From Schmidtea polychroa (taxonomy: Eukaryota), in assembly GCA_044892525.1 (NCBI GenBank), contig CM097885.1, forward strand, positions 222,518,001 through 222,582,000: a stretch of 64,000 nucleotides of DNA, read 5' to 3'. Below are positions 24,991-62,760 of the stretch, piece by piece (positions within the stretch are counted from its first letter, which is position 1; each line of letters begins with the position of its first letter). Both the position numbers and the translations under genes were made by a program. The notes under the pieces were generated by a model. The model was not told where the DNA came from, did not search any database, and saw only the letters and a list, made by a program, of their open reading frames with translations.

Positions 24991-27819
24991 CTATGTCAAA
25001 AATATAGAACTTACATCTTGATAGATATTGTCTACTTGTAATTTACAAAGTAATGTTTCGAAATTGGAATTTTGATCGTTTTGATGGAAAGCGTTAGAGG
25101 ATGAACTTGAATTACAATAAAGAGGATCAAGAATCAGTTTCATTGAATCTTCAATGATATTCTGATTAAATGCATCGTTATCTGTTACTAGATCTAAAGG
25201 AATATCGTAGGACTTTTTAGAATCTTTTTGGTTTTTAATATCCTTGATTTTCTCATCTTTTCGACAATTATTTGTAACAGCCGAGTGACCGGAATTTCTG
25301 TACATACATCTTTTTCTGTAGCAAAAATAAAAAATAAACACCACTAGCACAATAGATATCAATGAAGAAATCCCAATAATCGAAATCATTACTGGAAATG
25401 TGAGTGATGACGATAATGGAAATTGTAAGTACGACCTATCATGTCCCATTATGTACACAATTAAACTTTGTGAAGTATGAATATTTTTGGAATTTGCGTC
25501 GATTGCTTGAAGCTGAAGGGTTAGTTCACCTGGTTTTATGTTAAGTCTTTTGAAAGTTATTTCACCAGTCACGTGGTTTATTTCAAAAATGTCATTATGA
25601 TTATGGAGAAAGTAGTGTACCACATTATACTTATCACTGTCATTATCGACGGCTCTCACTCTTGTTAAAACTGAATCGCGGATGTTTTGTAAAGATATGT
25701 TCATTACATTGTCACGAATGTTTGGATATTGCCAGACTGGACCGTTATCATTTGTGTCAACTACATGAATATAAAATCTTTGGATATTACTTAAAGGAGG
25801 TTTTCCACTATCTGTTACTTTAACTGTGATTGAATACAAATCACACTCTTCATAGTCTAAGGTCACGTTAGAATAGATGATTCCAGTTGTGGGATTTAGT
25901 TCAAAAAGCTTTTCATTAATAGACCTTACATTGTTTTCGGAAGTTGTATTGAGCAAATAGTAATTAAGTTTGGAGTTGATTTCACTATCTTCGTCGAATG
26001 CTTGGATTTTTCCAATTTCATAGAAACCTTTTAAATTTTCTTGGACTTCAAATCTATTGGAAGCCAGTGAGAATTTCGGAACATTATCATTTACATCTAT
26101 CACATAGACAACAATTCTGGCGGAGGAAGTGAAGGATTTTATTCCACGATTGATTGCTAAAACGTTGAAAGACAACCTTTTAATTTTTTCATAATCTAAA
26201 ACAATTTTTGTTGAAATTATTCCGGAATTGTCTATTGTAAACCAGGTTGAACCTGGATCGGTGAGATCCAAGATTCTAGATTGGGTTAAATCTCGATCGT
26301 ATACTTTCACTGTTTTAACATTGGTTTCCGGGGATGTGTTTTCTTTGATGTATATTTCATATAAGTTTTGATCGAATGTTGGTTGGTATTCGTTTTCGTC
26401 TTTGATGTGGATCTCGACTTTTGTGGTCGCTGAATTTTGCGGTTCACCGTGATCATAACACAAAATATTTAGTGAAAAATATTTTGTCTCTTCGGCATCA
26501 AACGATTTGTCGGCAAGCAATTTATAAATACTTCTTTCATTTGTTTCAATAACGTTTATGATTTTGAAATAATTCAAGTAATTCTTATTAATAATTGACT
26601 GAATGTGACAAGAACATCGGGAATTTTCACCTTGATCGAGATCAGACACTGTTATAAAGGCTAATTGAAATGGAATTCTATTATTTTCTGACACTTCAAT
26701 AACAGTGTGATTCTGAAATTTAGAAATGAGAAAAGAATCTATCGGATTGACGAGAATCACCGGACTGTGGTTGTTTACATCGACGACGTGAAGAAAGATC
26801 CATGTTCGTCCGATCAAAGGATTCGGAGCTTTGTCAATGGCTTTGATAGAAAATTTAAATTTTGTCGGTTGATTAAATCTTTTAATAATTGAAATTTGAC
26901 CGGTTTTTTTGTTGATAGAAAAATACTTTTTCACTTCGTCCGCACCGGAGCTAAAACTGTATTCTAATTCACCAAATTCTCCATCGTCTTTATCGAAAGC
27001 TTTCGGAGAGAGAACAATTTCCCCGATTTGAGTATCTTCGTTTATAATTGCCGTATAATTCGATCTGTAAAACATGGGGGATTCATCATTTTCATTCGTA
27101 ATATTAATTATTATAGTTTGATTTCCACACAATGAAGGCTTACCATTGTCACAGGCTATTAGGATCACTTTATAGTGTTTTGTATTTTCATAATCAATAG
27201 GTCGTTCTAAAATAAGTTTCAAAGGGTTTTGTGATAAACTGAAAGGGAAATTAGATCTGTGTAAATGTTGAATCCCATATTGAATGGGTTGGAATTGATC
27301 TGAATCTAAGTCGACAGGTTCCTCTAAATTGATCTGAGTCTTCACTTTTGAAATTTCACTCAAAGATATCGACAAAAAAATTTGTCGAAATGCTGGCATA
27401 TTGTCATTGATGTCTATTATTTCTATATTGACATAAATCCACATCAGTTTATTTACAGAAACTATTTGGAGAATGGTACAGTTCTCATTTCTCTTTATCA
27501 TATTCAACTGGCATACGGATTCTCGGTCGATCTCAGAAATTGTCACCAAGTCTCCTGAGGAATTGTTGATTTTGAAAAGATTTTTCAAAGATCTCCCATA
27601 TCGGTTATGTGAGAGAGAGTGCGGTTCTTTGAAATCTTCTGAGTTTTCCAGTTGAAGTTGCACGTTACTGAAAAAGAATAATTGTGCAGATAAATTGATA
27701 TTTCCAACAATCGTTCCAATTGAGCAATTTTCAACAAGTTTGAAGGAAATTTCTTTCAGCATGGCTTTCGAAGAAAACAAAAGGTTCAGAATCAAAACTA
27801 GAAATCCTACTATCCACAT
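24991..27819 (-). CDS. Protocadherin, delta-like: signal peptide, 7 cadherin repeats, TM segment, cytoplasmic tail; large first coding exon
   Basis: 942-aa uninterrupted ORF with a hydrophobic N-terminus. Repeat linkers DINDNMP, NENDESP, DVNNHSP, DENEYQP, DVNDNVP and DTNDNGP define 7 EC repeats. EC1 has DRESVC...C (protocadherin-type Cys pair). TM segment is VMISIIGISSLISIVLVVFIFYFCY. Confidence 0.97.
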   Translation of the reverse strand: MWIVGFLVLILNLLFSSKAMLKEISFKLVENCSIGTIVGNINLSAQLFFFSNVQLQLENSEDFKEPHSLSHNRYGRSLKNLFKINNSSGDLVTISEIDRESVCQLNMIKRNENCTILQIVSVNKLMWIYVNIEIIDINDNMPAFRQIFLSISLSEISKVKTQINLEEPVDLDSDQFQPIQYGIQHLHRSNFPFSLSQNPLKLILERPIDYENTKHYKVILIACDNGKPSLCGNQTIIINITNENDESPMFYRSNYTAIINEDTQIGEIVLSPKAFDKDDGEFGELEYSFSSGADEVKKYFSINKKTGQISIIKRFNQPTKFKFSIKAIDKAPNPLIGRTWIFLHVVDVNNHSPVILVNPIDSFLISKFQNHTVIEVSENNRIPFQLAFITVSDLDQGENSRCSCHIQSIINKNYLNYFKIINVIETNERSIYKLLADKSFDAEETKYFSLNILCYDHGEPQNSATTKVEIHIKDENEYQPTFDQNLYEIYIKENTSPETNVKTVKVYDRDLTQSRILDLTDPGSTWFTIDNSGIISTKIVLDYEKIKRLSFNVLAINRGIKSFTSSARIVVYVIDVNDNVPKFSLASNRFEVQENLKGFYEIGKIQAFDEDSEINSKLNYYLLNTTSENNVRSINEKLFELNPTTGIIYSNVTLDYEECDLYSITVKVTDSGKPPLSNIQRFYIHVVDTNDNGPVWQYPNIRDNVMNISLQNIRDSVLTRVRAVDNDSDKYNVVHYFLHNHNDIFEINHVTGEITFKRLNIKPGELTLQLQAIDANSKNIHTSQSLIVYIMGHDRSYLQFPLSSSLTFPVMISIIGISSLISIVLVVFIFYFCYRKRCMYRNSGHSAVTNNCRKDEKIKDIKNQKDSKKSYDIPLDLVTDNDAFNQNIIEDSMKLILDPLYCNSSSSSNAFHQNDQNSNFETLLCKLQVDNIYQDVSSIFLT

Positions 27820-27972
27820 GAAAACATTGATTCCTGTTTAATTGTTGGCAATTATCATGGGGCATAAAAACCAATTTAATAAATTTTTTTTTAATTTTCT
27901 TATAACCTAATTAATTATAGTCCTTGTATTTTTGAAAAAAAATAAAATTGATCTTTTTTTTTGTTTTAATTT

Positions 27973-37720: not shown

Positions 37721-37949
37721 NNNNNNNNNNNNNNNNNNNNNNNNNNNNNNNNNNNNNNNNNNNNNNNNNNNNNNNNNNNNNNNNNNNNNNNNNNNNNNNN
37801 NNNNNNNNNNNNNNNNNNNNNNNNNNNNNNNNNNNNNNNNNNNNNNNNNNNNNNNNNNNNNNNNNNNNNNNNNNNNNNNNNNNNNNNNNNNNNNNNNNNN
37901 NNNNNNNNNNNNNNNNNCAATTTAAAATTTCTAGATTGAAGTTAATACT

Positions 37950-38415
37950 TTTATAACCAAAATTTATATTTTATAGCTGAAATTTATACTTTATGTTTAA
38001 AATTTTGGATTAATTTATATTATATAGTTGAAATTTGTATTTTATATTTAACATTTTGGTTCAATTTATATTTTATAGTTGAAAGTTATACTTTATATTT
38101 AAAATTTTAGATTAATTTATATTATATAGTTGGAATTTATATTTTATTTTAAAATTTTGGTTTAATTTATATTTCATAGTTGAAATTTATATTTTATATT
38201 TAAAAATTTAGATTAATTTATATTATATAGTTGGAATTTATATTTTATTTTAAAATTTTGGTTTAATTTATATTTCATAGTTGAAATTTATATTTTATAT
38301 TTAAAATTTTAGATTAATTTATATTATATAGTTGGAATTTATATTTTATTTTAAAATTTTGGTTTAATTTATATTTCATAGTTGAAATTTATATTTTATA
38401 TTTAAAATTTTGGAT
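37950..38415. repeat. AT-rich minisatellite: about 50-bp monomers organised into a 101-bp higher-order dimer
   Basis: gattaatttatattatatagttggaa recurs at 38110, 38211 and 38312, alternating with the variant gtttaatttatatttcatagttgaaa. Confidence 0.9.
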
Positions 38416-39066
38416 TTTAAAACTTTGACTTTGCAGTTGAGGTTCATGCTAAAAATTCATATCTAATTATTATATTTTAATAAAACTTTCATGTAACGAT
38501 CTGTAATTTATGGTTTTGTAAGCAAATTTTACCCATGACAATTTAGAATTCCTACCTTTACGATCAAAATTGATATATTTAGGTATCAAGTACTTTCGCA
38601 ATTTTAGTTTATGTTTCTAATTATCTATAATTCATAAAAATTTCCATCCATTTCTGTAACAGCATTTATCTACAGCCACTGGTAATTCCCATTTTCAGCG
38701 ACGAATTTATCCATAACCATCCTTTAGAAGGGCCCAACTATAACTATTCTTCAACACTTCATAAGATTATGACGGGATTCTATGTTCTAAAGGTATATGA
38801 TTCGTATTCAGCTAATTGCATTTAATGAAAAATCCAAGCCCTGCCAATACATCTATCGAACCTTAGTTACGAACTAAATCATTATGAAAATTCTTTACTT
38901 TATTCAAAAATTTATCTAGGTTCGACAATGTATGGGCAGAGTCAATTTTTAGGAACTCAACCGCCTATACTAAGTGTGATTTGTTGAATTTTAGGTATGA
39001 GATCTACTCAATTTACCAACCTTAGGGTATTTTTGTATCACTGATTTTAAATGTTGACTTTAAATA

Positions 39067-39402: not shown

Positions 39403-42400
39403 AAAGAAAATTTTTGAAACAAAAATCAAATATGGAATACTTTAATTTTAAGTAAATCATAACTACATAAAAAATTTCAATCAAATCTACTTACTATGTA
39501 GGTTGGAAAAATTTTGTTCAAAATTTGGCATAAAAATAATACTAAATACTGACTGAAACGTGTCAGTATATATACCTATTTAGTACACGTGTATGTATTA
39601 ATGCATTAAAACAAACTCGAATTCTTTTTATTCCAGAATTTTCTATTTTGCGATTTTGATATTTTTAATGGCGATTTTTGTGCCATAATTTTTGTTTTTA
39701 TTTTTAAATTTTAAATTTTTTATTATTTTTCGTTAATTTGACGTCCATGATGGATTTGGAACGGTTCCAGAACATTCTATATTACTTTTAATTTACTTTT
39801 TATTCTAACTGGTGTTTTATGAATTTCTTTTTAAGATTTATTATTTTTTAATACTAATTTATTTATTTTCTCTAACCTTTATGGCTTCTGTGATGGTCAT
39901 CGTCATTTTAATGGAATGTTCTGGGTTTTCTGGAATTTTTTACTGTTTTTACCATCTTTTAAGTTATTCGAGTTTGCTTTTTGTAATTCTATGTTTATTT
40001 GGTTATTTTTGAGTTAGATTTTGCATAACTTCTTGCTTTTGTATGATTTTATTTAATTTGTGTGTTTATTATTTTTGTTGTTTTCTCTGTTTAATTACCA
40101 TTGTTTATTTGGTGTAGGTTTTAATATTTAACTTTACTTGGTGCTTTTTTACTTGCTGTGTACCTACACATTTCAGTCAAAATTAGTATTTTGGGTCTAG
40201 AAATCAGTTCTAGCCCAACAATAATGTGAATCTTGTAGTTTCTTTTATTTATTTCTATCGTGTTTTATTTATTTCAAACTAATTTTAAAACCTTGCCATG
40301 TCTGTGTCTTGTTGCATTCGATTTAGCAGGTCAATGATTAAAAATATAATGTTTGTCCATCATTTCATCTATTCTGATCATCCATTGTTACCAAATTTAA
40401 CGTCTAGGTATCTATAGATATTCTCTTCAATGATATGTTAACATAAATTTAAAATTTTTACTTATTTAAATCTATTTTTAATTTATTACCATAATTCTTC
40501 ACAAGATATTTAATCTTTAAAATATCTTACCATAAATTCCTGTTCAAAAATCTTGGGACCAAAAATTCTTTGGCATTTTTAGCGAGAATTATTTTAGGCT
40601 TTTTTGTAACTAGAATTATTTTAAGCTTTTAAGCGAGAGCTGAATTCCCTGTACAAAAATCCCCGTGATCTAAAATATCCTAGAGACTTAAAATACTTTG
40701 GCTTTTTTAGAGAGAAAAATATTTAGAGTTTTTTCATTAAAAATTTATTTTGGTGCCTTTTTGCAATAGTTTTTTCGTTAAAAATTAATTTTTTTAAAAA
40801 ATATTTTAAAAAAAGAAAACCCCCCTCTCCCTTAAATGATTAGGGAAAGGGAGTTTACAAAACAAATTTTTGTTTAAGCCAAATATCTCATGGGTCATAT
40901 GAATGTAAACAAATTAAAATAATATGTATTTTTAGTCCTACTAATATTCTACTAATGCTGTAGTATATGAGTCATACAGACACGTGTTTTTTGTCCAAAT
41001 TCTAAACAGAGTAACTTCGGGAGCACAATAGCTACAAATTAAGTAGATGTAATAGCTACAAAAAGTATTTTTGATAAAAAGTAAAATGCAAAAAGTTTTA
41101 CTTAGGAAGGAATGCATTATTTACATTAAAATTACAATATTTTTTCAAATCTTTTTTAGTATTAATTTTATGAATTGAATATACAAAGTATATGGGGGAA
41201 ATTGAGATTTCATTGATATCCATGAAAAATAAAATTTAATTTTTTCGTCAGTTTCAAGTCAGCAACAGCTAATAACACTAGTTTGATGCATTTCATAATT
41301 ATTATTTTCTTATAAATTAAAATAATTAAAATCTGTAAATTAGTTAACAAATATGAAAATGTCATTGAAATAGTATGCAAATGAATATTTTATGATTTTA
41401 TTTATAATCTTGTTTGCTCGTTGACAAATTAGACAAGAGTAATAATATTATTATTTATAATATTAATATAGTTTTTTTCCCTTTTTCAATTCATTAGCTT
41501 TTATAATCTGTTTTTATCTTTATTATTTTCTATGGGCATTATAATTTTCTGCTTGAAAAAGTAAATAGTTCCTTAATTTCCCGCAATAATTCCGACAATT
41601 CGATTATCAGTGGAATAAATGAGTGATAAATTTACATTTAGTGTCATTTTGAAGCGTTCGTGTTTACGTGCAATTTTCATTGTGGTCAAAAGAATGTCAA
41701 AAAAAAATTTCTTCTCTGTTGAAAGTCGAAAGGTTGATTAAATAATTACTTCGTTCGGAAAATTAATTGGCATCAGAGTAACAAATTTTGTTTATTTTCA
41801 TTTCCAGATACTGAAAATTGACAACTGAATTTCCAGACACCTATATTATTTTGAAAGACAAATAAGAAAACATAAATAAATANNNNNNNNNNNNNNNNNN
41901 NNNNNNNNNNNNNNNNNNNNNNNNNNNNNNNNNNNNNNNNNNNNNNNNNNNNNNNNNNNNNNNNNNNNNNNNNNNNNNNNNNNNNNNNNNNNNNNNNNNN
42001 NNNNNNNNNNNNNNNNNNNNNNNNNNNNNNNNNNNNNNNNNNNNNNNNNNNNNNNNNNNNNNNNNNNNNNNNNNNNNNNNNNNNNNNNNNNNNNNNNNNN
42101 NNNNNNNNNNNNNNNNNNNNNNNNNNNNNNNNNNNNNNNNNNNNNNNNNNNNNNNNNNNNGTCTACTTCATTAATCTTGATGATTTCACTAATATTTACG
42201 ACAATCAATAAAATATTTACCACTTTCAGTTTTAATTTAATGCATTCAATTTAACGCAATCAATTAAATAAATTTTATTTTCACAATTTGTGGATAAATA
42301 ATTAATTTAATTTCTTTTTTTTAAATATTAGATTTCAAGAGCAAAGTAAACGCCGAAATTATGTGATTTGATTTCGCTGGTCTTTCTCTTACTCTGATTG

Positions 42401-50418: not shown

Positions 50419-51005
50419 AGTAGTAGTGTAAATAGTAGTAGTGTAATAGTACCCCCTCCCTCGGGTGGGAAAATTAAAAAAATATTTTCAAGGTCAAATT
50501 TTAAACAAAGACATATAACACATCAAAGTCATTGAAACAAAGACCATGACTCATCCGATGACTCATTCCAGGTCATTCTCAAGATCGTATGACTCATCCG
50601 ATGATTCATCAATAAATTATTATTATTTTTAAAAATATTATTAATTGAGCTAGCGGTGACCTACTTTTTGGCACTACTATCATCTGATTCCATTGAACGA
50701 TGGTTCATTTTAAAGCCCACTACAAGACCTTTCGAATGAGGTAAGTACCACTATTTTTAAAGCTATTGACAATTTTCCAAGACCATGTTTCAATGTCTTA
50801 TTATTAATTTTCAAAATATTATTATTATTTTATTATTATTTTCAAAAATATCCTTTTTCCAAGGTCATATTATTTTTCAAGGACATATTATAATTTTTCA
50901 AGGTCATATTTTAAAATTTTATATTTTCAGAATTCCCGTCAACGGAATTTATTAAACGATGGTTCATTTAAAGCCCACTGCAAGACCTTTTCGAATGTGC
51001 TATAG
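50419..51005 (+). repeat. Left TIR of Polinton A
   Basis: Colinear with the reverse complement of 54812-55373. It contains two internal copies of aacgatggttcatt(t)taaagcccact.caagacct(t)ttcgaatg. Confidence 0.9.
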
Positions 51006-51036
51006 ACATCAATCTTATCATCATTAATTTTATAGA

Positions 51037-51498: not shown

Positions 51499-53590
51499 TC
51501 AATATAACCCATCATCAAAATCCGGACTATTTCCATCAAAAAGTGGCCCAACTTCAAATATTTGGTCATCATCCGGAACATCAATCCCTAAATAGTGACC
51601 ATATGCCAGACTGGAATTAGGCCCCACCCATAGTCTCTTGTAATCGTTGTTCGACAAGGCTATTTTACTATTCTTAAAAGTAAAGAGCTGGTGAATACGG
51701 GTTCTTATTTTCGTTTGTGTCACTCTATATACTACGCTGTTGTTGTAGCAGTCTAAATAAGAATGGTGCCCTATCTCAATATTTAATAACTTGACTCCCT
51801 TAGCCCTGAGTGTTGCCTTATCTCCTAACAAACTATAACACTTAGGGCGCAAGAAATCCTACTCGCTATAGCCCAGCCCTTTACTTTTGTCCTTAAATTT
51901 GCCTTAAATTTGCCTATTAAATTTGCCTAAATTCAAACCTGTACTTGGTCAATTCCACATACTGTAGTTGATACATTCTTAGTTTAGACAGGTCTAGCAT
52001 TGATTGTCCTATGTAACTAAGCCTGTCTAAACATATGGAATCTTTATTCAGATGGGCGGCAATCAAGTCATCATCAATTTTGATTGATTTCCTGAAAGTC
52101 GTCTTTGAGGCATATAGAATCATCTTTTCAGTTGAATTGCTTAGCCTCAAATTCATCCGCTTTTTCAGATTCTCCACCGATTTCCCATACAAGCTAATAT
52201 TAAATAATTTTTTTAGATCCCTATATAATTCACATGTGGAAATAACCCGTAAGTCTGTGTTTATATATATATCTATGTACATTATTAATAATAGCCCCCA
52301 ATTCTATATACATCTTGAGAAGCCGCCAATGAAGAACATGGTTCTTCTTTGGCCAATGCGTGAGCATCAGCTTCTCAACTTTCGAATTTGCCAGGCACAT
52401 CTTTTCCTATGCAATCGAAATATCATTCAGAAACTCATGCAAACAATCAGGGATATCAATATCGACCTTCATAGTATAGCCATATGGAAGATTATCGATA
52501 TCAGCATTCTTACATTCATTCAAGACATCATCCAGATTGTCATACACCCATTGAAAGTCAGCATACGGCAGGTTTTGGCTAAGAGCCCAACCAGATTATT
52601 TACATCAATGTATAAGAGTTCTGTGTCTTCAGAACGTGCAACATAATGTTTATTAAATGTTAACCCACCCCGTAACCTTCCTTCATAGAAATTATACATT
52701 TCCATCTCCTGCAGAAGTTCTATGGGTTCCGTTAATGTCATAAGCACTGAGGCCCATGACATACCGGGGATTCCATAAAAATTAAGAGGCTCGAGATCAT
52801 TGTAAGCAATTGCCTTTTCACGGAATTGCTGAAAATAATCTGCGAGGAGAAACACGTCTAACTTCAGGTAAGTTAACATGTAATCTAACATGTTGTTGCA
52901 GATTTGCTAAGTCCAAATAACTTGTGCAAAAAGAACTTGGGCACACTCATCATTAGACACAGAATTCCAGATAAGAGGTAGTTCAAGAGTCGATTACAGA
53001 TCCTCAAGAAATGTGGCGAAGTCATAAGGAAAAATACCTTTGGCTCGAACTATTGCGTCATCAAAGACAGAAGAAGTTAAAGGCAAATCGGAAAGTGTCT
53101 TAACCGCTTTTGCTAAAGATGAATTAACAAACTGCATGCTGTCAATAAAACGAACAGGCAATTTGTTAATATACGCTATGACAGAGATGAATTTTTCCGT
53201 AGTAGTCGGAATAATATTTAATTCCCAAGAAGGAAAATTATTCAGACCATACTTCAAAATATGATGGAGATCATACTCCCTCAAATTATGATAGACAATA
53301 GGTAACTGTCTCTGAATTCGCCGAGACACATTACAATTCCTACAAGCAGCACCAAAATACTTACCTGAGAAGTGGCAATGGTCCCTTACTCTATGTATAA
53401 TAGATTTCTTGCAAAGATAACAGGTCCTGGAATATCGAAAAGCCCGCTCTTCAGTGAAAGATTAGGTTTGAATAGGTTTTCGCCCATTCATTTCGTAATA
53501 CGGCAGGACAATTGTGACAGCAATTTCCTCAACCTTACGAAGGAAAGACAACACACAATCCTCACCAACAAACTCATAATAAAATCTAGA
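51499..53590 (-). pseudogene. Protein-primed DNA polymerase B (pPolB) of Polinton A
   Basis: CYLCKK...VRDHCHFSGKYFGAACRNCN; LPIVYHNLREYDLH; RFIDSMQF...SSL; KGIFPYD; YLKLDVFLLAD; RGG...LLYIDVNNL; LYGKSVEN; YIGQSMLDLSK; LRPKCYS...AKGV. Frameshifted; the YxDTDS segment is missing. Confidence 0.95.
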
Positions 53591-53615
53591 TTTATTACAA
53601 TTATTAATTAATAAC

Positions 53616-53920
53616 ATGCCTGCTGTTATTGGCAAGCGTTAGTAATGACTACAGAATAGGACCAAAAATAATAAATAATAATTAATTACCGAATTATTTA
53701 TTATTTAGAAGATTTAGGATTCGATGAAACTGATAAGGAAGTCACTGAAGAAATTGGTGTTGATGATGACGACGACACTCAAGAAATTGATGAGGAACCT
53801 ATAGATGAACCTAATGATACGGAAAATATTATGAATGATAACGATTGTAACGATTGTGTAGATCATGTCGTTGAAAATGTTATGAAATGTGGAGATGACG
53901 ATTGCGAGTGTGTTAATTAA
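53616..53920 (+). CDS. Unknown small acidic protein with C-terminal Cys cluster (copy 1), probably spliced
   Basis: Open frame 53708-53920: EDLGFDETDKEVTEEIGVDDDDDTQE...NDCNDCVDHVVENVMKCGDDDCECVN*. Acceptor tttAG at 53708. Candidate exon 1 starts at ATG 53616 with a weak phase-1 donor at 53638. Confidence 0.6.
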
Positions 53921-53983
53921 TAAATTTTAAAATTTATTTATTTCTTTTAAAGAAAAAACAACGTAACTACATTAATTTTAATT

Positions 53984-54477
53984 TTAAAATTTACAAATAA
54001 TATACAAGATGGCAACACCTGTTGCAAGTTTAATATAGTTTTTAAACTTCGTATTTTGCTGATCGATTTACCTGGCATTTCGGGCCAGTTCATTGAGTGT
54101 ACCCCATCCACCATTGGCTTCTATCCATGGAGTAAACTTGGACTTGATTATCTAAATATGAATATTATTAATATATAGATAATAACTAAAAACTTACTTC
54201 TTGAGACCACTATTAGTAATTCTCTGAGTCCCATGAACTTTTATCTATAATAATTTTCATAAAAGTGAACCCTACAATTATTCGGGTTCACTTCATTTCG
54301 TCATCGAATAGGCAATTGAAGATTCTATTGAAGCAGAACTTCTTCGTCTCCAGAAAATCCATATCCAGTATGTTCTGGTAATCAATATGATTCCCTTAAA
54401 TGATTTCTTCAGTCTTCCGTAAGGATTGTATTGACGAGCTCATTTAGCAAGTTGTCGATAAAATTAGGTTGCGACAT
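53984..54477 (-). pseudogene. Bcl-2-family gene (copy A) inside Polinton A, two exons
   Basis: Exon 1: MSQPNFIDNLLNELV...FNRIFNCLFDDEMK*TRIIVGFTF...WSQE (BH1-like). A 46-nt GTAAGT...TTTAG intron (54197-54152) follows. Exon 2: IIKSKFTPWIEANGGW (BH2)...YIKLATGVAILYIICKF* (hydrophobic tail). One frameshift and five in-frame stops. Confidence 0.85.
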
Positions 54478-54600
54478 TTATTTGTTCAATAATTTAAAAT
54501 ATAATGTTTTATTTATACTACTACAGAATTGTGTGCAATATGATTCTGATTGGTTAATAGACTATAAATGTAAAATATATACGTTTTGATTTGATACAAC

Positions 54601-54812
54601 ATGAATACAATATTTCTATTGGTAATCAGTATAATGAGCGTGTGCTCACACAATACAACAATAACGGTGGAGTCTTCAAATAAATCAATATGTGTTTGTC
54701 CAAATACTGCAAAGTTGATGGACTTATATATTATTGACAAACCAAAATGGGCAAAGCATCCAGGAAAAAGAATATCCGAAAGATTGGAGAATTTTGAAAA
54801 CACCTATGACCT
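54601..54812 (+). CDS. Short ORF with signal-peptide-like N-terminus, divergent from Bcl-2 copy A
   Basis: MNTIFLLVISIMSVCS-HNTTITVESSNKSICVCPNTAKL... The frame runs into a (TA)n tract and the right TIR. A CCAAT box (tgattggtt, about 54548) lies in the intergenic spacer. Confidence 0.35.
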
Positions 54813-55373
54813 ATATATATATATATATATATATATAACTCATTCGAAAGGTCTTGCAGTGGGCTTTAAAAGGAACCATTGTTCAATCAAATACATTGGC
54901 GGGAACTCTGACAATTTAAATTATTAAAATATGACTCTGAAAAAAATAATAATATTTTGAAAATTAATATTATGACCTCGAAACATGGTCTTCGAAAATT
55001 GTTAATATCTCTAAATATAATAAGATATTTATAATTCATTCGAAACGTCTTGCAGTGGGCTTTAAAATGAACCATCGTTCAATGAAATCAGATGACAGGA
55101 ACAATAACTTCTGGGGTGCCATAAAATAGGTCACCGCTGGCTCAATTAATAGTATTTTTAAAAATAATAATAATTTATTGATGAGTCATCGGATGCGTAA
55201 TACGACCTTGAGAATGTCCTTGAATGAGTCATCTGGTGAGTCATATGACTTTGGATGAGTCGTCGCGTGAGTCATGGTCTTTGTTTCTATGACCTTGATG
55301 AGTCATATGTCTTTGTTTAAAATTTGACCTTGAAAAAAAAATTTATTTCCCACCCGGGGAGGGGTGGACTACT
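54812..55373 (-). repeat. Right TIR of Polinton A
   Basis: Ends ...GGGGAGGGGTGGACTACT (55373). Reverse complement aligns with the left TIR. Confidence 0.9.
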
Positions 55374-56149
55374 GACCCAGTGGTGACCAATTCATCTACT
55401 TATAGTAAAGTAAGGAAAATAATTTACGGATAAACTTAGTATTGAAAAATTCAAATAAAATAAATTTGTAAATCTAAATAACAGCAAGTCGTTAAATTAG
55501 AATAAAAAATATATTCTCATAATTAAAAGAATTTCATTCATTTTAAATAAAGTTACTATGAAAATAGTGTAAAAATTTTTTTTCAAAATTTTTCAAAGTA
55601 AAACAAACAATTTTAAAATTTCCAATTTCATTTAAACAAAATCAATTGAAATATTTTTCAAAAATTAATTCCCTAATAATGTGGTCGATTCTCGTAGATT
55701 TTTATTGCCATTAACAATTGATCCTAATGAGTAAATTATTTGTTTGTATTGGGCAAGTTTCCATATAATGATTATGAACATCAATACGATTTGCAACAAT
55801 CACCTCTGAATCCCTGTTCGAAATCATCCAACATACAATTAGTGCTTTGTAAGTAAAACAAACAAAATTATTATATTTCTAAATGAAAGTATTAATTTTT
55901 GTTTTCATTTTTTATTAATATATTCGGAGTTTTATTACTAATATTTTTATAAATTTAATTTTATTTTGTAAATATCAATGCATTGTCCAATTTATTTCTG
56001 ATTTAAAATAATTATTAATTCCTTTATAATTTGTTTAAATCATAGATTCGCTATAATTCAGTAATTGTTAACCTGGGTCACTTGTCGCCTTTAATTATTG
56101 TCGTTTTCTTTAAATGCTATTTTTTTCAAATCCATCATGAAAATGAGTT

Positions 56150-57240
56150 CTACAATTACTGCAAAGTAATTTTTAAGTTTTTAGTCAAATACATGTTATG
56201 GTTCAGATACATTTAAACAGACTTCATAGCAATATCTTTCTTCCGTTGAACATATTTTATTGTAGATACCTTCATTTTTTAGTAGAATATAGAATTTTAT
56301 CGTTAAAATCAGATTGCATTGAATATATGTTTAAATTATAATAGATGGTTCTATCCGAAAGGTAATCGACTGGGTAACCTTGGCAAGCAGTTTCTCTTGT
56401 TTAAAGTATCTGGATCCTCTATTTAAAATTTTTTAAATTTCTTTGAATTAAGAGTATTGTCAGGAATATTTGGCTAATTTATCTACTATTATTTATCGTC
56501 TATGACTAATCCACAAAGGTTTACGTATTCGTAATTGGCAACTTCTCCCAACAAAAAGAACGATGATCATTCCATTCAATGGATTCTATCTTGCAGTTTT
56601 AGGAACATGCAGTGCATTACAAGGAAAACATGATATTTCGTGGAATTGTTTTGCGATTGCCTATATTAGTAGCGTCAAACAAAAACATCGGATTTATCAC
56701 TATTTATTGCCGTTCGTTCCGTAATTTATATACATATCTAATTCTTTCAAAAAAACCTTTATTCCATAAATCAAAATCATACAATCCACGTTTATTTGGA
56801 GATTTTTAACGTTGTAGTAATTAAAGGTACAAATGCACATTACAAGCTACAGCTTTGAGGAAATAACAAAGCGTGCTTTAGATTTATTTTTCCAAATCCA
56901 AACCTTGCAATGCTGCACTGATGAATTGAGACAATTGAAAAGTCAAGAGCAATTATTCAATGTTTGAATGTCCACCTGGATAACTAATGTTGGCGCTTTT
57001 ATTGCCATTTGTAATGTTTTACATATTAAAGATTCATCGAATAATGTTGAAATAATATATATATAAAGCGCATGTTGTCTGTATCCTTTTGTTGACTATA
57101 GCAGTTTTATTAGACAACGATGATGGTGTTGGTATATATGGAACTTGTTAATGAAGGAAATGAATACAGAGAATACCATCAAACTTCTTACTATTATCTT
57201 CGAGAACACCTATTTTACCTTTGAATAAAATGTTTATAAA
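56150..57240 (-). pseudogene. pPolB N-terminal region, highly degenerate
   Basis: QVPYIPTPSSLSNKTAIVN...CALY matches the SYIPxP..L..KxAIVN...C motif of Polinton pPolB. Downstream is a C-x2-C...H...C remnant (CTACS*NCKIESIEWNDHRSFC). Confidence 0.6.
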
Positions 57241-57329
57241 TAAGTTAAATGTTTGCCTATGGGTTCTAGCATATCAGGATTGTCAGCAATCATTTTTATG
57301 GATAACCTCGAACGACAAACATTGAGGAC

Positions 57330-57490
57330 TATACAATCCATCGGTTTCTGAGCAAGTTATAAGGATATCTTTATCATAACCAAAAGCAGAATCATCACGT
57401 ATATTTATTTTTATATTGTTTATACATGAGGTTGAGACAGGTAAATACGTGGAATTTTCTATGGTGATTTCTACAACTTCATCCTGTTCT
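57330..57490 (-). pseudogene. Penton (minor capsid) C-terminal fragment
   Basis: EVVEITIENSTYLPVSTSCINNIKINIRDDS, homologous to NNSTYLPTIIKTIDSISFKIVDQ in the 29.3-kb penton. Confidence 0.65.
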
Positions 57491-57529
57491 TGTAGATTTC
57501 AATTGATTGTATTACTTTACTAAATTTAT

Positions 57530-58100
57530 TTCTGATATCCATGTCGGTTTTTGATACCCATGCTACTTGACATAGTATTGTTTATCCTTACCTATCTTTT
57601 TAGTTTTCAATATTTTATGAATTCTAAATACTTTTGGCGAAGGAATAACTTTTAATTCTTGTTCAAAAATTTAACCATCAACCTTTCCATTATTATAGTC
57701 TTTAATGATATACATACTGGATAGTATTGATTTTTGAGATTCTAAAAACATCATTATTCTAGTTTGTATCGAATTTTTTTATGAATGGAGAAGCATTAAT
57801 TTTAATAATTCTAACATGATCAACCATTTTATATTTAGGATTTTTAATTTTTTCAATCTTTTTCGAAAGCTGTAAATCAATAGATTGTTTTGATGAAATA
57901 CCTATATGTCTCAAGCCTTTCAAACCTTGGTGCGACGAATGATCATAACCATATATAGTTTGAGGCAAAGCATTAATCCATGTCTTATTACCTTGATGCG
58001 CAAACAATTCATTCACTTTTTCGAGTGGTAAAATAGTTGTACAAAGTATTCAGATTTCCATACTATTGTTGAAGGAATTATAAACGATGTAAAGGATTTG
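57530..58100 (-). pseudogene. Polinton retroviral-like integrase C-terminal half with chromodomain-like tail
   Basis: KTWINALPQTIYGYDHSSHQGL...KNPKYKMVDHVRIIK...FIKKFDTN, then LKDYNNGKVDG*IFEQELKV...FRIHKILKTKKIGKDKQYYVK*HGYQKPTWI. Confidence 0.85.
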
Positions 58101-58149
58101 ATTTTTTCTCTAACAATTTCTTCAAGTATAACGATTTTTGTAACGAGGA

Positions 58150-58476
58150 TTTGCTCGAATATTTATCTACATGATGGTAATTGTTATTTATTTTAAATTT
58201 TGTTTTTATTTTTATTTAGAAACTATGCTAAACGTGTTGATTGATAAAATCAAAGTTTTTTATCCAAACTTGAACAATTCCTTAATGTATTGTGCTCCAG
58301 AAGTTGTGTTTTACAAATTTTGTGAAATAACTAGAATAAATGTCATAGAATTAATTCATATGGATCATTCTACGATTGCATGTTGCACTGACGATGTTGA
58401 AAATTGTGATTTTTGTACAAATAATATACGGAATACTTGTGGGGATGATAGTTGTACATGTTTTGTGAATCTATAA
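58150..58476 (+). CDS. Unknown Cys-tail protein (copy 2), spliced
   Basis: 43-nt phase-1 GT-AG intron (58177-58219). Exon 2 is uninterrupted: ETMLNVLIDKIK...DDVENCDFCTNNIRNTCGDDSCTCFVNL*. The start of exon 1 is not determined. Confidence 0.65.
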   Translation, partial: FARIFIYMMVIVIYFKFCFYFYLETMLNVLIDKIKVFYPNLNNSLMYCAPEVVFYKFCEITRINVIELIHMDHSTIACCTDDVENCDFCTNNIRNTCGDDSCTCFVNL

Positions 58477-58760
58477 AAATGATAAATACTTTATGTATTA
58501 CTTGTTGAATTGCATAAAAGGTATTGTTGTAATATAAAATATGCATGTATAAAATTATATTAGTTTTGTGATAATATTACCTTACTAACCTACAACCTTT
58601 AAAAATCCTTTATTTGCATACAATAAATCATTTAAGACTTTGTTAATTAGCATAAAATATATTAGTTGATCACGTTTTGATCATATCTGTCATTTAAAAC
58701 CTTTTTACAATAGAATTAGTATAAATATCTTGTTCAAATCATTACTGATTACAACTAAAA

Positions 58761-59325
58761 ATGGATTATCAAATTACAAGTTTGTTGTTCTTTGCAAATA
58801 TTCCATTTAATAGATTTTTAATTTAGGAGTATTGAAGAGAAAAAAATGTTGATGCTGCTCAAGAATTTGGAAAATGGAAATTTATAGAAGAGACATTATC
58901 TTTGGAAACCTTATTCATGGTTCAAGTTGATACAAAAAAGCCTGTAGAAATTGTACAATACAAACAAAATTATTTATATTGTCCAATTTCTTATATATTT
59001 AAGCTAAGTTTTTATAAATTACTTTGGATTTGATTATTTTATTGTTAGGAACCATTAACTCTTGAAAAATGTTTTTATAAAGTGCAATTTTCAAAAATCA
59101 AGTTAAACGATAAGATCAAATTGGGACAATTTTTTCAGAGAATGAACAAAAATATAGAATTCAATGAAGAATAAATGTTTATCAAATGCGATTTGGACGT
59201 AATTCCCAGTGAAGAGATGAGTAAAATAACTTGCATGGTTATAGTACTCATTCAAGGATATAATATAAGCAGAAAAGAAATAAAACCGATTTGGAAGATT
59301 ATAAAAGCTTAAGAAAATTTTGACG
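58761..59325 (+). pseudogene. Unknown spliced gene (about 150 aa) within Polinton B
   Basis: Long nearly open frame NVDAAQEFGKWKFIEETLSLETLFMVQVDTKKPVEIVQYKQNYLYCPISYIFK|EPLTLEKCFYKVQFSKIKLNDKIKLGQF... Two intron-like segments: 58780-58826 (GT-AG, 47 nt) and 59004-59048 (CTAAGT...TTAG, 45 nt, donor apparently mutated). Confidence 0.45.
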
Positions 59326-59436
59326 ACGATTGTTGTATAGTTTCAATCCTATTTTAATAAGTCTTTGGTTAATTGGTCTTTTTAAATAATAATGTCATAA
59401 CTTTTATAAAAATAACTAAATCAAGTTTTAAATTTA

Positions 59437-59828
59437 TTAATTATCACATGTGCAGTTTTGATCTTTACAATTTCCTTTCATCATATTTTAACAACATGAT
59501 CAATACAATTAGGAAAATTATTAGATTCATCTTCTTGTTTAGGTTCATTTGGTGATTTATCAGTTGTAGAATTCTCAATACATGACTTAATTTCTTCACT
59601 AGGTAAATCATTACATTCATAATCATTTGCGTGCTTGCTTTTTTCTTTATTAATTTCATCGTCTGATTACGGTGATTTTAATTTCTCTTGAACATTCATA
59701 AATTCGCTAATTTTTACATTAGACATTTCCTCTAATTTATCAATCAAAAATTTGATAATATATGCTAATTAAAAAAATAATTAAAGATTAAAAAAATCAT
59801 ATTTTACCTTTTTCGACATGGTTGACAT
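59437..59828 (-). pseudogene. Unknown Cys-tail protein (copy 3), spliced
   Basis: MSTMSKK, then a 43-nt GT-AG intron (59807-59765), then YIIKFLIDKLEE...EDESNNFPNCIDHVVK/MMKGNCKDQNCTCDN*. One stop and two 1-nt frameshifts. Confidence 0.7.
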
Positions 59829-59866: not shown

Positions 59867-60061
59867 CAGTGTTTCTCAAACTATGGGTCGCGAAAGAATT
59901 TTTGGTGGGTCGCGATGACTTATGGAAAGATCTACAAATATAAATTTTGGAAGTTTAAGCCTTTTAAATTTATTTAATCTTTGTCATGTGGGTCGCAATA
60001 AAATTTTTGGCATGAAATGTCAAAAATTTGGGTCGTGATCAAAAAAGTTTGAGAACCACTG
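59867..60061. mobile_element. hAT (Charlie/Buster-like) MITE, 195 bp
   Basis: TIRs CAGTGTTTCTCAAAC / GTTTGAGAACCACTG. Perfect 8-bp TSD CCTTAATT (59859-59866 and 60062-60069). Confidence 0.96.
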
Positions 60062-60114
60062 CCTTAATTTGATGAAGTATTATTTAAACAATAACAAACA
60101 TTTACCAAGATTTA

Positions 60115-60657
60115 TTAAAGTTTTAGATACACTTTAATAAATGTATATACAACTCCAAATCCAGTCATTAGTTTGAAAAAAATCTTTTAAATTTTCACAT
60201 TTGACATCATTCTCGTTTGATTTTGTAACGAGTTCAAACATCATAATCCATCCATCATGATTATCGACCCATGACAAAATTTTTGATTCAATAATCTAAA
60301 TAATGAGGATAATAATAATATCAAGTTAATCATCAAAATAATACATCTCTGCAGACCATTGAAAATAATTTTCAAGTCTGAGCCGACTTCTCTAAAATAT
60401 GTTTCACACCTGAAACCTATAATAATTCGTTACCATTTAATTTTATCATCGAATAATGTATAAAATATTTCCTCGAATAATTTTTGTTTGTTCAATTGTC
60501 TCTCTCAATTGATAATAGTGTTGTACTCGATACGATTATCTTCAACGATTTTTTCTGAGCAATTAACAAGAAATTGCAGATTATTGATCACCTCGTTAGT
60601 TTCTTTGTTACAGACAAGATCATTTAACACGTCAATCATAAATTTCGTTTACTTCAT
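60115..60657 (-). pseudogene. Bcl-2-family gene (copy B) inside Polinton B, two exons
   Basis: Exon 1: TKFMIDVLNDLV...LFEEIFYTLFDDKIKW*RIIIGF...ENYFQWSAE. An intron of about 49 nt (60344-60296) lies at the same position as in copy A. Exon 2: IIESKILSWVDNHDGW...KLMTGFGVVYTFIKVYLKL*. Stops and frameshifts present. Confidence 0.82.
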
Positions 60658-61934
60658 TTATAAATAATTGTTGAAATTTTGGTATATTTATATTATTTGT
60701 ATTAATAAAAGAATATGACATAAAAGAAAAATTAATTTTAATAATATTCAACTTTTAATTTTAATTTACAAACTACAGCGCCAGCCCCTTCCTGGCAATG
60801 GGTGTCACTGATGATTTTAATCTTTGTATTTTGAATTATGTACATTTACATGTTTTGTGGTGAAATGTTGATTTAAAAAATGGTGTAAGTTGTGAGAGAA
60901 AAGTTTAAAATTTTGTTTTTGGGTATTTTAAAATTTGGGAAATTTTGAGGAATTTATTTTTGGGAATTTTCTGAGTTGTGAAAATCTTGTAAATATCTTA
61001 TATCTTATACGTGTGATTTTTTATTAATCAAAAGTAGTAGATGGTATATATTCCTCCAAGTATTTTTATTGATTTTTTCTAAGATGACTAAGATGTATTT
61101 CCAAGTATTTTTTATATATAAAATTTATTTCTATAATAAAGTGGTGTGACCTTCATATTAAAGTACTTGGAGTTGACCTACATATTTTTAAAAAAATTGT
61201 CTAAGTATTTTATCAAAGCTTTTGTTCATTGTCCCACCATGTGTTGAAAAATATGAATTTATTTCTATAATAAAATGTTTTCTATGTTTGATAATATATA
61301 AAAATTGTTATATTATGGCATTTGATGCTGAAGTTATTCATTGTTTCGTTATGTGTTGAAGCATACGATTTTAATTCTATAATATAAGACTGGAGTGATT
61401 ATCATAATATATAAAAGTTATTATATTATGGCATGACCTACATTTTAATTTACAGGCTTTGGAGCTCATTTCCATGGAAACTAGGCATTTTTATATATAA
61501 ACACCATATATTTTCGTGACCTACATAAAATTCTGAGTCGGCCTAGATATTTTCCAGGGTGGGGGTGGATACTTATTTTTAAAAAAATATTTTAATTAAT
61601 TATTATTTTTGAAATATCTCATTCAGGGTACCCACCACAGATTTTATATTATTTTATTTGTATTTGTCTCATTATTTGTCATTTTCACATACCTGTTTTA
61701 ATTCATTTTTTTACTTTATTTATTAATTTTTGAATTTAAATAAGTCTTGTCCTTTTTATCGATTTGCACTCGATTCTCTGTGTATTTACGTTTCTTTTGC
61801 ATCATCCTAGACAACACCTGACATATTTAATTACTATTTATATTTATATTCTAAAAAAGCTATTTATTTATTATTCATAACTATTTCTTAATTAACCCAA
61901 GTTATCGATCATGAACCATAACATGCAAAAGTTT

Positions 61935-62190
61935 ATCCAACTTACAAATTTTAATTTAGGAAGAACGAATAGGTGTTACGAGAAACGATATTAATTTCAC
62001 AGATGAATTCATTGCAATATTTTTGTAACTCTTCATCATGGTATTAGTGCATATTAAGTTTAGATAGATCCAGTAACTTGGTCTATTCAAATAAATCAAT
62101 TCTTTATACCCAAATACACCTATTTTACCTTTCAACAAAAGATATATTGAAAGGTGTAACAGTGAGTTCTGGTATTTTGGACTTGTTAGT
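61935..62190 (-). pseudogene. Third pPolB fragment (palm region), outside the element B terminus
   Basis: KELIYLNRPSY / LLDLSKLNMH*YHDEELQKYCNEFICEINIVSRNTYSFFL, homologous to the SICLDRLSYIGQSMLDLSKLRMY segment of pPolB A and including a decayed DTDS (NTYS). Confidence 0.75.
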
Positions 62191-62199
62191 AATCATTTT

Positions 62200-62760
62200 T
62201 TATGGATAACATCAAATTACAGACACTCGTAACCATACAATATGTTAGTTTTTTCGTAAGATATGTAGTGGATATTTTTAGCATAACCAAGAGCAAAAAA
62301 GAAATGAATGAAATATTTTATATATCCAATGCGACTCACCAATATATTAAGTTTTAAATCGAATATCCAGAAAAATGAATCTCTCAATCTACTGGATTTA
62401 AGAATCAAAATAGATGTTCACGAATATCACAATAACGATATTGAAAGTATAAATTCAAATCCACAAAGACCTTGATACACGACACAAACTGGAAGACATA
62501 TTTTATCTGAATATTTTATCGACTTCAGGGTCCTAAATGAATTTAAGGACACTGACCGTCAAATTAGTTAAAAAAACAAATACCAGAGTTTCAGAACATC
62601 TGGATCCTACTGGAAAATCCTCGTTATACAGACAATTCCAACAATATAAACCAATGAAGAAGTAAAATAATATTTCAATTAAAATCTTAGTCAGTGATAA
62701 CGTTCCAAAAATTTGAGATTTAAAGAAGCTTTTCTTATCATAAATAAATATATAAAATTT
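62200..62760 (+). mobile_element. Penelope-like relic: RT fragment plus GIY-YIG C-terminal fragment
   Basis: FFVRYVVDIFSI...NATHQYIKF...LLDLRI, then TNTRVSEHL...KSSLYRQ...IKIL...KEAFLI. Confidence 0.8.

Follow-up and report, generated by a model that had tools for sequence, protein, structure and literature searches.

A small cysteine-cluster gene family in Polinton/adintovirus relics of Schmidtea polychroa

Results

Three copies of a cysteine-cluster gene

The window analysed is a 64,000-nucleotide stretch of the S. polychroa genome (contig CM097885.1, positions 222,518,001 to 222,582,000). It contains three copies of a small gene encoding a cluster of cysteines, together with the following neighbours.

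50419..51010: left terminal inverted repeat (TIR) of element A; begins with AGTAGT and matches the right arm at 78% over 429 nt
51502..53647, minus strand: relic of a protein-primed DNA polymerase B (pPolB), 5' part deleted; Pfam DNA_pol_B_2, E 2.3e-05
53638..53708, plus strand: AT-rich stretch (GC 15-23%) with a plausible acceptor at its end; the donor is a candidate
53709..53920, plus strand: copy 1, last exon only, an open frame whose stop overlaps AATAAA
53984..54477, minus strand: Bcl-2-like relic A, tail to tail with copy 1; the pieces resembling BH1 and BH2 are not in the same frame
54800..55373: right TIR of element A, ending ACTACT, pairing with the left arm
57480..58176, minus strand: integrase relic with a chromodomain-like C-terminal end, 5' part missing, abutting copy 2
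58177..58219, plus strand: candidate intron of copy 2 (43 nt, GT..AG) with a plausible acceptor
58220..58525, plus strand: copy 2, with helix 1 (LIDK), a YPNL..APE segment, a helix-turn-helix (HTH) block and the Cys cluster
58761..59312, plus strand: broken ORF, probably spliced, lying between copies 2 and 3; Pfam and PHROG gave nothing informative
59437..59764, minus strand: copy 3 exon 2, LIDK helix leading into the HTH block, acidic linker and Cys cluster
59765..59828, minus strand: candidate intron of copy 3 (59765-59807, 43 nt) and 7-codon first exon; donor in phase 0, acceptor in phase 1
59867..60061: 195-bp MITE, which we take to be hAT-type, with an 8-bp target duplication, inserted between Bcl-2-like relic B and copy 3
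60113..60639, minus strand: Bcl-2-like relic B, on the strand of copy 3 and upstream of it; Pfam Bcl-2, E 0.022

The three Cys ends read as an earlier note on this DNA had given them, at 53846-53911 (+), 58405-58461 (+) and 59446-59520 (-). The patterns are C-x2-C-x2-H-x7-C-x4-C-x-C in copy 1, C-x2-C-x7-C-x4-C-x-C in copy 2 and C-x2-H...C-x4-C-x-C in copy 3. Across all six frames of the window the string C-x-D-x-x-C-x-C appears 3 times, and 0/60 block shuffles reached 3 (mean 0.03), a test that overstates rarity because the pattern was chosen from the copies themselves. No fourth copy was found by profiles among 2,136 six-frame tiles of the window. A YCAPE look-alike at 40989-41033 was rejected (profile E 0.33-0.55). 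An alternative register, pairing C-x2-H of copy 1 with C-x2-C of copy 2, was also rejected; the original register scored higher in 16/16 comparisons.

All three copies are pseudogenes, and as every one is broken, none is active now. Copy 1 lacks the 5' part of the gene that carries the helical block. Copy 2 has stops at 58474, 58480 and 58483 that break a C-terminal helix kept by its relatives. Past the stops its frame still matches this further helix to ~58525, so the Cys cluster is internal in copy 2. In copy 3 the frame meets a stop at 59669 and breaks near 59489.

The copies lie in Polinton/adintovirus relics

The placement of all three copies within Polinton relics was borne out, with pPolB, TIRs or an integrase accompanying 3/3. 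The pPolB relic adjoining copy 1 also matched a PHROG DNA polymerase (E 1.7e-05), and by eye its motif order is that of published adintovirus PolB. Element A, which encloses copy 1, has AGT-type ends, the end motif of Polinton TIRs. No PolB was found in the window beside copies 2 and 3. Around these copies only a short end-like motif (61557-61571) was found, with no extended similarity to the element A TIR. The integrase relic matched Pfam Chromo only (E 0.079), with no rve match; its HVDK and downstream motifs agree by eye with published adintovirus integrases. The contig from which relative P0005 derives is 15,141 nt long, Polinton-like on size alone. We regard it as very likely that the Cys-cluster gene is a Polinton accessory gene.

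Copies 1 and 3 were described as neighbours of Bcl-2 genes. Adjacency to Bcl-2-like relics held up, but the Bcl-2 assignment itself is below threshold: Pfam Bcl-2 scored 15.8 and 13.2 bits on the broken pieces against a gathering cut-off of 31.4, and the BH2 piece of relic A had E 0.14, below the cut-off. Relic B weakly matched the canarypox Bcl-2-like protein (PDB 5wos, E 0.066), and a two-sequence profile (A5) found no Bcl-2 match in the PDB. The two relics are 60% identical in DNA over 482 nt. In both elements the Bcl-2-like gene is outermost and the Cys gene next inward. These are two cases from related elements, in opposite relative orientation, and copy 2 has no such neighbour.

Architecture and membership of the family

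Ten unnamed relatives of the window copies exist. Another candidate, P0003 (E 3.5e-10), was dropped, being a repeat protein of 1,751 aa in which no stretch was matched. Neither outcome that the earlier note had named as refuting its reading came about: more copies with conserved Cys spacing were found, and no annotated domain dominated the matches. As predicted from these sequences, the gene layout is a short helical module, a variable and often acidic linker and a four-Cys cluster. The cluster, C...C-x3/4-C-x-C, is present in 11/12 sequences; P0005 lacks the C-x4-C-x-C part. The CxxC...CxDxxCxC tail originally proposed therefore needs amending. Its cluster is conserved, but the first Cys of CxxC is optional (5/12 sequences) and copy-2-type relatives have a helix after the cluster, so it is not always C-terminal. 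A Phe in copy 3 had been read as a decayed Cys, which it need not be, because the first Cys is missing from 6/6 intact copy-1-type relatives as well. An internal repeat in copy-2-type proteins was considered and rejected (scores -14 to 3).

The middle is variable and often acidic, as had been stated. The copy 1 linker is 42% D+E, the linkers of six relatives range from 38 to 46 residues, and copy-1-type proteins have a strongly negative net charge. Copy-2-type proteins are only 11-22% D+E, not strongly acidic. The copy 1 tail shares 19/21 positions with each of 6 relatives, against 58-60% identity over the whole exon. Conservation of the tail beside variable linkers is as expected of selection acting on the Cys cluster. 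The helical block, K-[LIF]-x-[EQ]-[ILM]-[STA]-x-[VI]-x-[IV]-x-[DES]-[LIF], was present in 11/13 sequences, the same 13 from which the expression was derived; the other two are truncated.

The grouping of the three copies in one family is firm for copies 1 and 3, which are clear homologues by sequence comparison (68% DNA identity over 167 nt). For copy 2, membership appears likely from the sequence evidence. The alternative, that copy 2 represents an unrelated family whose Cys pattern arose by chance or through a borrowed segment, is rather unlikely. It draws on an hhalign probability of 3.2% over 14 columns between the copy-1-type and copy-2-type groups, and on external profiles that do not cross-detect. 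The profile of six external copy-1-type proteins did not list copy 2 at E<5, and that of three external copy-2-type proteins placed copies 1 and 3 at E 0.4-1.8, amid unrelated tiles. The two-block order test is also weak for P0004 (9/500) and P0005 (60/500). For copy 2 and P0002, however, 0/500 shuffles matched the two blocks in the same order. Helix 1 of copy 2, P0002 and P0004 gives a gap-free alignment with the first residues of copy 3, and the acceptor falls at the same point. P0004 and P0005 match the surroundings of CxxC in copy 1 (scores 23 and 36), and a joint profile recovered both groups.

Introns and first exons

The acceptors of all three copies are in phase 1, as had been reported. 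The first exons assigned earlier to copies 1 and 2 were not sustained: the former (53616-53637) is conserved pPolB read on the opposite strand, and the latter is the integrase HVDK motif, likewise in antisense. A 43-nt intron shared by copies 2 and 3 was partly upheld. Both candidates are GT..AG, AT-rich and the same distance before LIDK, but their identity, 29/43, is marginal and was reached by 483/10,000 shuffles. Upstream of the copy 2 donor there is no in-phase ATG. The ATGs 5' of the donors in copies 2 and 3 are all in phase 0 (3/3 and 2/2) against an acceptor in phase 1, so these copies cannot splice in frame as they stand. The short first exon of copy 3 has a counterpart in P0004 and P0006, where a comparably short stretch precedes AYI.

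The copy 1 intron is not that of copies 2 and 3, its acceptor being downstream of the helical block. The match of 6 relatives to copy 1 begins exactly at the AG acceptor (53707-53708), where the relatives are continuous, an indirect sign that copy 1 may have been spliced. The same stretch (53638..53708) contains the junction at which a deletion has joined pPolB and copy 1.

Database, structure and literature searches

The family was said to be unrecognised, and Pfam, PHROGs, NCBIfam, PDB and fold searches indeed give it no name. Nothing informative was found in Pfam for the three copies with P0002, P0004, P0005, P0007 and P0009-P0011, in the family scan of P0006, P0008 and P0012, in PHROGs for four relatives, or in NCBIfam for four relatives and the three copies. 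Weak rows did appear, all of them unrelated and driven mostly by composition. No catalytic family was found in the Pfam, PHROGs and NCBIfam scans and no HTH family in Pfam or NCBIfam. A family profile (A3) had 0 matches at E<=10 among PDB sequences. Searches of the ESM Atlas with copy 2 and P0004 gave no usable feature match, and structure rows had TM under 0.5. In bacterial and archaeal genomes 0/312 and 0/79 pattern matches were confirmed, and none of the 10 relatives is a named cellular protein.

The predicted structure of the intact relative P0004 has five helices (pLDDT 74.8). Its Cys loop is the least ordered part (57-58), consistent with a model made without metal. The P0009 model, two short helices followed by coil, is of low confidence (pLDDT 52.5) and is in line with a disordered acidic protein. 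No chain among 48,161 reached a Z of 8 against the P0004 model, which is no proof of a new fold, and Foldseek returned 0 matches at E<=0.001 in BFVD or PDB.

No description of the family was found in the literature covered, which excludes subscription journals and Repbase. Short family words were absent from portions of two supplements (PMC8502044 / PMC11071296); the proteins of one listed Schmidtea adintovirus lie outside these portions.

Discussion

Comparison with known systems

Adintovirus genomes reportedly contain small ORFs that encode Cys pairs, as well as Bcl2/IAP homologues (Starrett et al. 2021, PMC8502044). Oncoids, as described there, combine LxCxE/CK2 or CR1 motifs with a usually paired CxxC and typically lie upstream of PolB (PMC8502044). 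The present gene resembles them as a small Cys-motif accessory ORF in animal Polintons whose genomes may also carry Bcl2 homologues. Copy 1 is upstream of PolB, though across an internal deletion. In contrast, LxCxE was found in 0/11 window and relative strings and, by eye, in none of P0010-P0012. CR1, (DEN)(LIMV)xx(LM)(FY), was also found in 0/11, a count that could miss an N-terminal motif because first exons are missing or uncertain. Two CxxC occur in only 2/8 sequences (P0004 and P0005) and in none of the window copies tested. Assignment to the Oncoids was therefore rejected for want of LxCxE/CR1. Adintoc proteins are conserved in adintoviruses with no assigned function (PMC8502044). The Cys gene is likewise element-borne and without a database match and, the comparison being by short family words in portions of two supplements, it may correspond to one of the numbered Adintocs.

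Adenovirus E1A has an acidic, disordered body with a Cys4 zinc site. It is a spliced small regulator gene near the genome end, beside the Bcl-2 homologue E1B-19K (PMC8449131; PMC2137191). The Cys gene, a candidate spliced gene with a putative zinc site, resembles it in these respects. It differs in having no positive sequence similarity and no LxCxE, and the gene order is reversed, with Bcl-2 outermost in the relics. The Cys spacing of E1A CR3 is met in 0/8 Cys-gene sequences. The DM (Doublesex/MAB-3) pattern is C-x2-C-x2-H...H-x3-C-x4-C-x-C-x2-C. Copy 1 and P0005 share the C-x2-C-x2-H start, and C-x4-C-x-C is common to both patterns, but the second His and final C-x2-C are missing, the full pattern occurs in 0/11 and there was no Pfam DM match.

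Possible roles of the family

The best reading of the sequences is that the copies are a decayed accessory (non-core) gene of a Polinton/adintovirus lineage, which would have lain near the element end by a Bcl-2-like gene. The four conserved Cys make a metal-binding cluster probable. Joined in some members by a fifth residue, Cys or His, they would fold around one zinc as a small knuckle. By analogy with adenovirus, we tentatively suggest a host-directed, non-enzymatic adaptor that would use its helical module, acidic linker and knuckle to bind host proteins, and might push the cell toward a state favouring viral transcription and replication. The neighbouring Bcl-2 homologue would suppress the resulting cell death. 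This would be the logic of E1A with E1B-19K, here without the LxCxE motif. Against an adaptor are the two related, oppositely oriented cases of Bcl-2 adjacency and its absence from copy 2, the weak acidity of copy-2-type proteins, the incomplete cluster of P0005 and the lack of LxCxE or CR1 in 11/11 strings.

The gene product could instead have regulated transcription from the element's own promoters, contacting DNA through the HTH-like block and using the linker for activation and the knuckle as a second contact. The block is modelled as a helix-turn-helix in P0004 and P0009, its spacing agrees with that of the classic HTH signature, and repeated elements in the TIRs could be sites. The would-be recognition helix is acidic (ED, EE, SE), however, copy-1-type proteins are strongly negative and no HTH family was matched, and we consider this role doubtful. 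A captured host gene fragment with no role for the element is improbable. Spliceosomal-type introns and the decay of all window copies would fit such a passenger, but two elements ~60-70% identical have kept the gene, two types of it occur in a single region, its tail is more conserved than its linker and it has no named cellular relative. A role as a minor virion (cement) protein bearing a zinc knuckle is less probable again. Structurally, the P0004 model scored best against a capsid chain of PBCV-1 (8h2i_bR, Z 6.2, rmsd 3.0, 80 aligned), and an iridovirus capsid chain had Z 4.5, but helical bundles commonly give Z values below 8 and the sequence identity is 5%. The Foldseek result, the location by the element end and the acidity of copy-1-type proteins also argue against it. 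The least probable role is that of an iron-sulfur protein like anamorsin/Dre2, whose CIAPIN1 (cytokine-induced apoptosis inhibitor) motifs are CX8CX2CXC then CX2CX7CX2C (PMC8251831). The spacing C-x2-C-x7-C-x3/4-C-x-C is close to these, in both cases a linker precedes closely spaced Cys ending in C-x-C, and an anti-apoptotic-like gene is adjacent. Each motif occurs in 0/8 sequences, however, and there is no methyltransferase-like domain or CIAPIN1 Pfam match.

A more specific form of the adaptor reading seems unlikely as a whole. An invertebrate Polinton lineage would have its own E1A/E1B-like terminal module, in which an adaptor free of LxCxE, combining a helical domain not described before with a four-Cys zinc knuckle and occurring in two paralogous types, is functionally coupled to a spliced viral Bcl-2 and acts on host cell-cycle or death control without going through the Rb pocket.

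Significance

The accessory genes of animal Polintons are the best evidence that these elements behaved as true, host-manipulating viruses, and most are unnamed. Cys-motif accessory genes and Bcl-2 homologues have already been reported in adintoviruses (PMC8502044), and the family is a new example. As it stands it adds another orphan cargo gene in dead elements to a category already reported. It also gives a defined, apparently selected protein whose intact natural relatives could be purified. If an Rb-motif-free partner of a viral Bcl-2 is what it encodes, the 'drive cell, block death' pair known from small DNA tumour viruses would have arisen independently here.

The Cys-cluster family and its relatives

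The window is AT-rich animal DNA in which the following features were delimited.

53709..53920 (+): copy 1 of the Cys-tipped frame
58220..58525 (+): copy 2
59437..59764 (-): copy 3
53984..54477 (-): Bcl-2-like relic A, near copy 1
60113..60639 (-): Bcl-2-like relic B, near copy 3
59867-60061: MITE of 195 bp separating relic B from copy 3, flanked by an 8-bp target-site duplication
58761-59312 (+): ORF lying between copies 2 and 3, broken and probably spliced, with no family match
57151-57498 and 61959-62417 (-): pair of penton-like relics sharing 68% identity over 190 nt
24991-27837 (-): cadherin-repeat membrane protein ORF, protocadherin-like; a single 948-codon open frame with six repeats (Pfam Cadherin E 2e-63)
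37945-38416: tandem repeat, unit ~51/101 nt

The three Cys-rich ends described in the earlier note are present in the sequence. They mark a genuine family of small proteins in animal Polintons that is apparently uncatalogued. The note's motif and gene models for it need correcting. The gene is element-borne and consists of a helical module, a variable linker and a conserved Cys cluster; it is dead in all three window copies. Sequence searches found ten unnamed relatives. The searches yielded 1/1 candidate, 4 matches in 1.84 billion representatives, 7/495 candidates at E≤10, and 6/1,794. One of the 4 matches, the repeat protein P0003, was dropped. Four relatives are of the copy-2 type (P0002, P0004, P0005 and P0006) and six of the copy-1 type (P0007-P0012). 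The latter are 87-100% alike and therefore close to one lineage. No relatives were found in the bacterial or archaeal genomes searched. P0005, with 11 member sequences and located on a 15,141-nt contig, is divergent, with C-x3-C-x2-C-x2-H and a second CxxC in place of C-x4-C-x-C.

The Cys cluster

C-x-D-x-x-C-x-C occurs three times in the six-frame window, a number reached in 0/60 block shuffles, the pattern having been taken from the copies themselves. Profiles found no fourth copy across 2,136 six-frame window tiles. The proposed motif, CxxC...CxDxxCxC, holds in part: the second Cys and C-x3/4-C-x-C form a common core in 11/12 sequences covering the region, but the first Cys is present in only 5/12; neither copy 3 nor any of the six copy-1-type relatives has it. 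Proteins of the copy-1/3 type also have an invariant His. The cluster is not always a tail: in P0002 and P0004 it is followed by a helix, and copy 2 is similar to that helix beyond its own stops. Each of the six relatives matches the copy 1 tail at 19/21 residues, whereas the linker differs in both length and sequence; this contrast suggests that the Cys cluster was under selection during the gene's lifetime.

A short exon-like stretch at 40989-41033 (-) reads YCAPE, a word also found in copy 2. It is reminiscent of a kinase APE motif and, by profile, is not a family member.

The helical module and gene models

The gene starts with a helical module comprising helix 1 (LIDK) and a helix-turn-helix-like block. 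The block is found in 11/13 sequences, and the two without it are truncated. Copy-2-type proteins carry 23 extra residues (YPNL..APE) between helix 1 and the block. Copy 1 is without the module. Its similarity to the six relatives begins exactly at AG 53707-53708, which supports a genuine acceptor but means that this intron comes later in the gene and is not the one seen in copies 2 and 3. What had been assigned as exon 1 of copy 1 reads antisense to a conserved stretch of PolB; pPolB and copy 1's intron were brought together by an internal deletion.

Upstream of copy 2 the sequence runs antisense to the HVDK motif of the integrase, with no ATG in phase. Since P0002 shares this stretch, where it has a short frame opening with ATG, a mini-exon upstream of copy 2 is possible. 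As P0002 also shares the junction sequence, the deletion there may be old and may have spread. At 53638-53660 and 58160-58190 a core gene (pPolB and integrase, respectively) ends right at an intron-like AT-rich stretch before an opposite-strand Cys gene.

Two naturally intact relatives were modelled. For P0004, a prediction based on an alignment of four sequences shows five helices (pLDDT 74.8, pTM 0.64; pLDDT of the Cys loop 57-58). The P0009 model is poor, with two short helices and coil (pLDDT 52.5, pTM 0.14). No clear fold match was obtained: the best Z was 6.2 (PBCV-1 capsid chain), with none at 8 or more, and Foldseek gave no match at E≤0.001.

One family or two

At the DNA level copies 1 and 3 are identical at 114/167 nt across a stretch that takes in the Cys codons, the stop and AATAAA, and they clearly belong to one family. 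That copy 2 also belongs, as the earlier note assumed, is where the evidence is mixed. The hhalign probability between copy 2's group and the copy 1/3 group is 3.2%, external-only profiles of the two types do not detect each other, and the intron identity of copies 2 and 3 is matched by 483/10,000 shuffles. Two-block scores are weak for P0004 (9/500 shuffles) and P0005 (60/500), but for copy 2 and P0002 the two blocks in the same order were reached in 0/500. Helix 1 of copies 2 and 3 aligns without gaps, with the acceptor at the same position, and the CxxC surroundings match in P0004 and P0005. We regard common descent of copy 2 with copies 1 and 3 as probable, and two unrelated families as unlikely.

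Element structure and the Bcl-2-like neighbours

Element A, the Polinton relic with copy 1, is bounded by inverted repeats (50453-50831 vs 54940-55364, 78%) which enclose copy 1, a Bcl-2-like relic and a protein-primed polymerase (Pfam E 2.3e-05) of which the 3' part is left. No target-site duplication is apparent at its ends. Internal repeats of ~80-90 nt lie within the TIRs (50692-51010 and 54811-55101). The second region contains, right to left, the other Bcl-2-like relic, the MITE, copy 3, the ORF, copy 2 and an integrase relic, and no TIR pair was demonstrated around it. The integrase relic was identified by a weak Chromo match (E 0.079) and by-eye comparison with published adintovirus integrases. 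We take the C-terminus of the ORF to resemble OB-fold single-strand-binding proteins. One stretch of the penton-like relics is similar by eye to a published adintovirus protein; the second relic lies beyond an end-like motif (61557-61571), which suggests a third element.

The Bcl-2 label is plausible at sub-threshold scores (Pfam Bcl-2 E 0.022 and 0.14; PDB 5wos E 0.066), and a two-sequence profile matched no Bcl-2 in PDB. Both relics (53984-54477 and 60113-60639) seem to carry an intron between BH1- and BH2-like parts and have an apparent hydrophobic C-terminal tail; in each element this gene lies outermost. They are 60% identical over 482 nt, so the two Cys-gene/Bcl-2 adjacencies are not independent. 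Copy 1 lies tail to tail with its neighbour and copy 3 in tandem after its own. A Cys gene/Bcl-2 partnership remains a guess from two related neighbours.

Possible function

In planarians, knockdown of smedwi-2 is reported to release Polintons from repression (PMC8532177). Starrett et al. 2021 (PMC8502044) had already described, in adintoviruses, 'Oncoid' ORFs that carry Rb-binding motifs and Cys pairs, along with unnamed 'Adintoc' genes and homologues of Bcl2 and IAP. Buck et al. 2024 (PMC11071296) point out that short motifs are all that defines Oncoid. The Oncoid motifs tested are absent from the Cys-cluster family (LxCxE 0/11, CR1 0/11). The DM pattern was found in 0/11. No description of the family was found in the literature searched; Repbase and subscription journals lay outside its scope and supplements were covered in part, so the family may already be listed as one of the numbered Adintoc genes or as a Repbase ORF.

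Among other roles, control of the element's own promoters is unlikely. A passenger gene is more improbable again, and a virion cement protein slightly more so. Least probable is an anamorsin-like Fe-S protein, whose motifs were found in 0/8 sequences. The four Cys probably hold one zinc ion. Our tentative preference for the role, still doubtful and drawn by analogy with adenovirus E1A and E1B-19K, is a non-enzymatic adaptor. The protein would promote viral gene expression by engaging host proteins, and the Bcl-2-like neighbour would prevent cell death. The Cys-cluster gene may work like Oncoid without being one.
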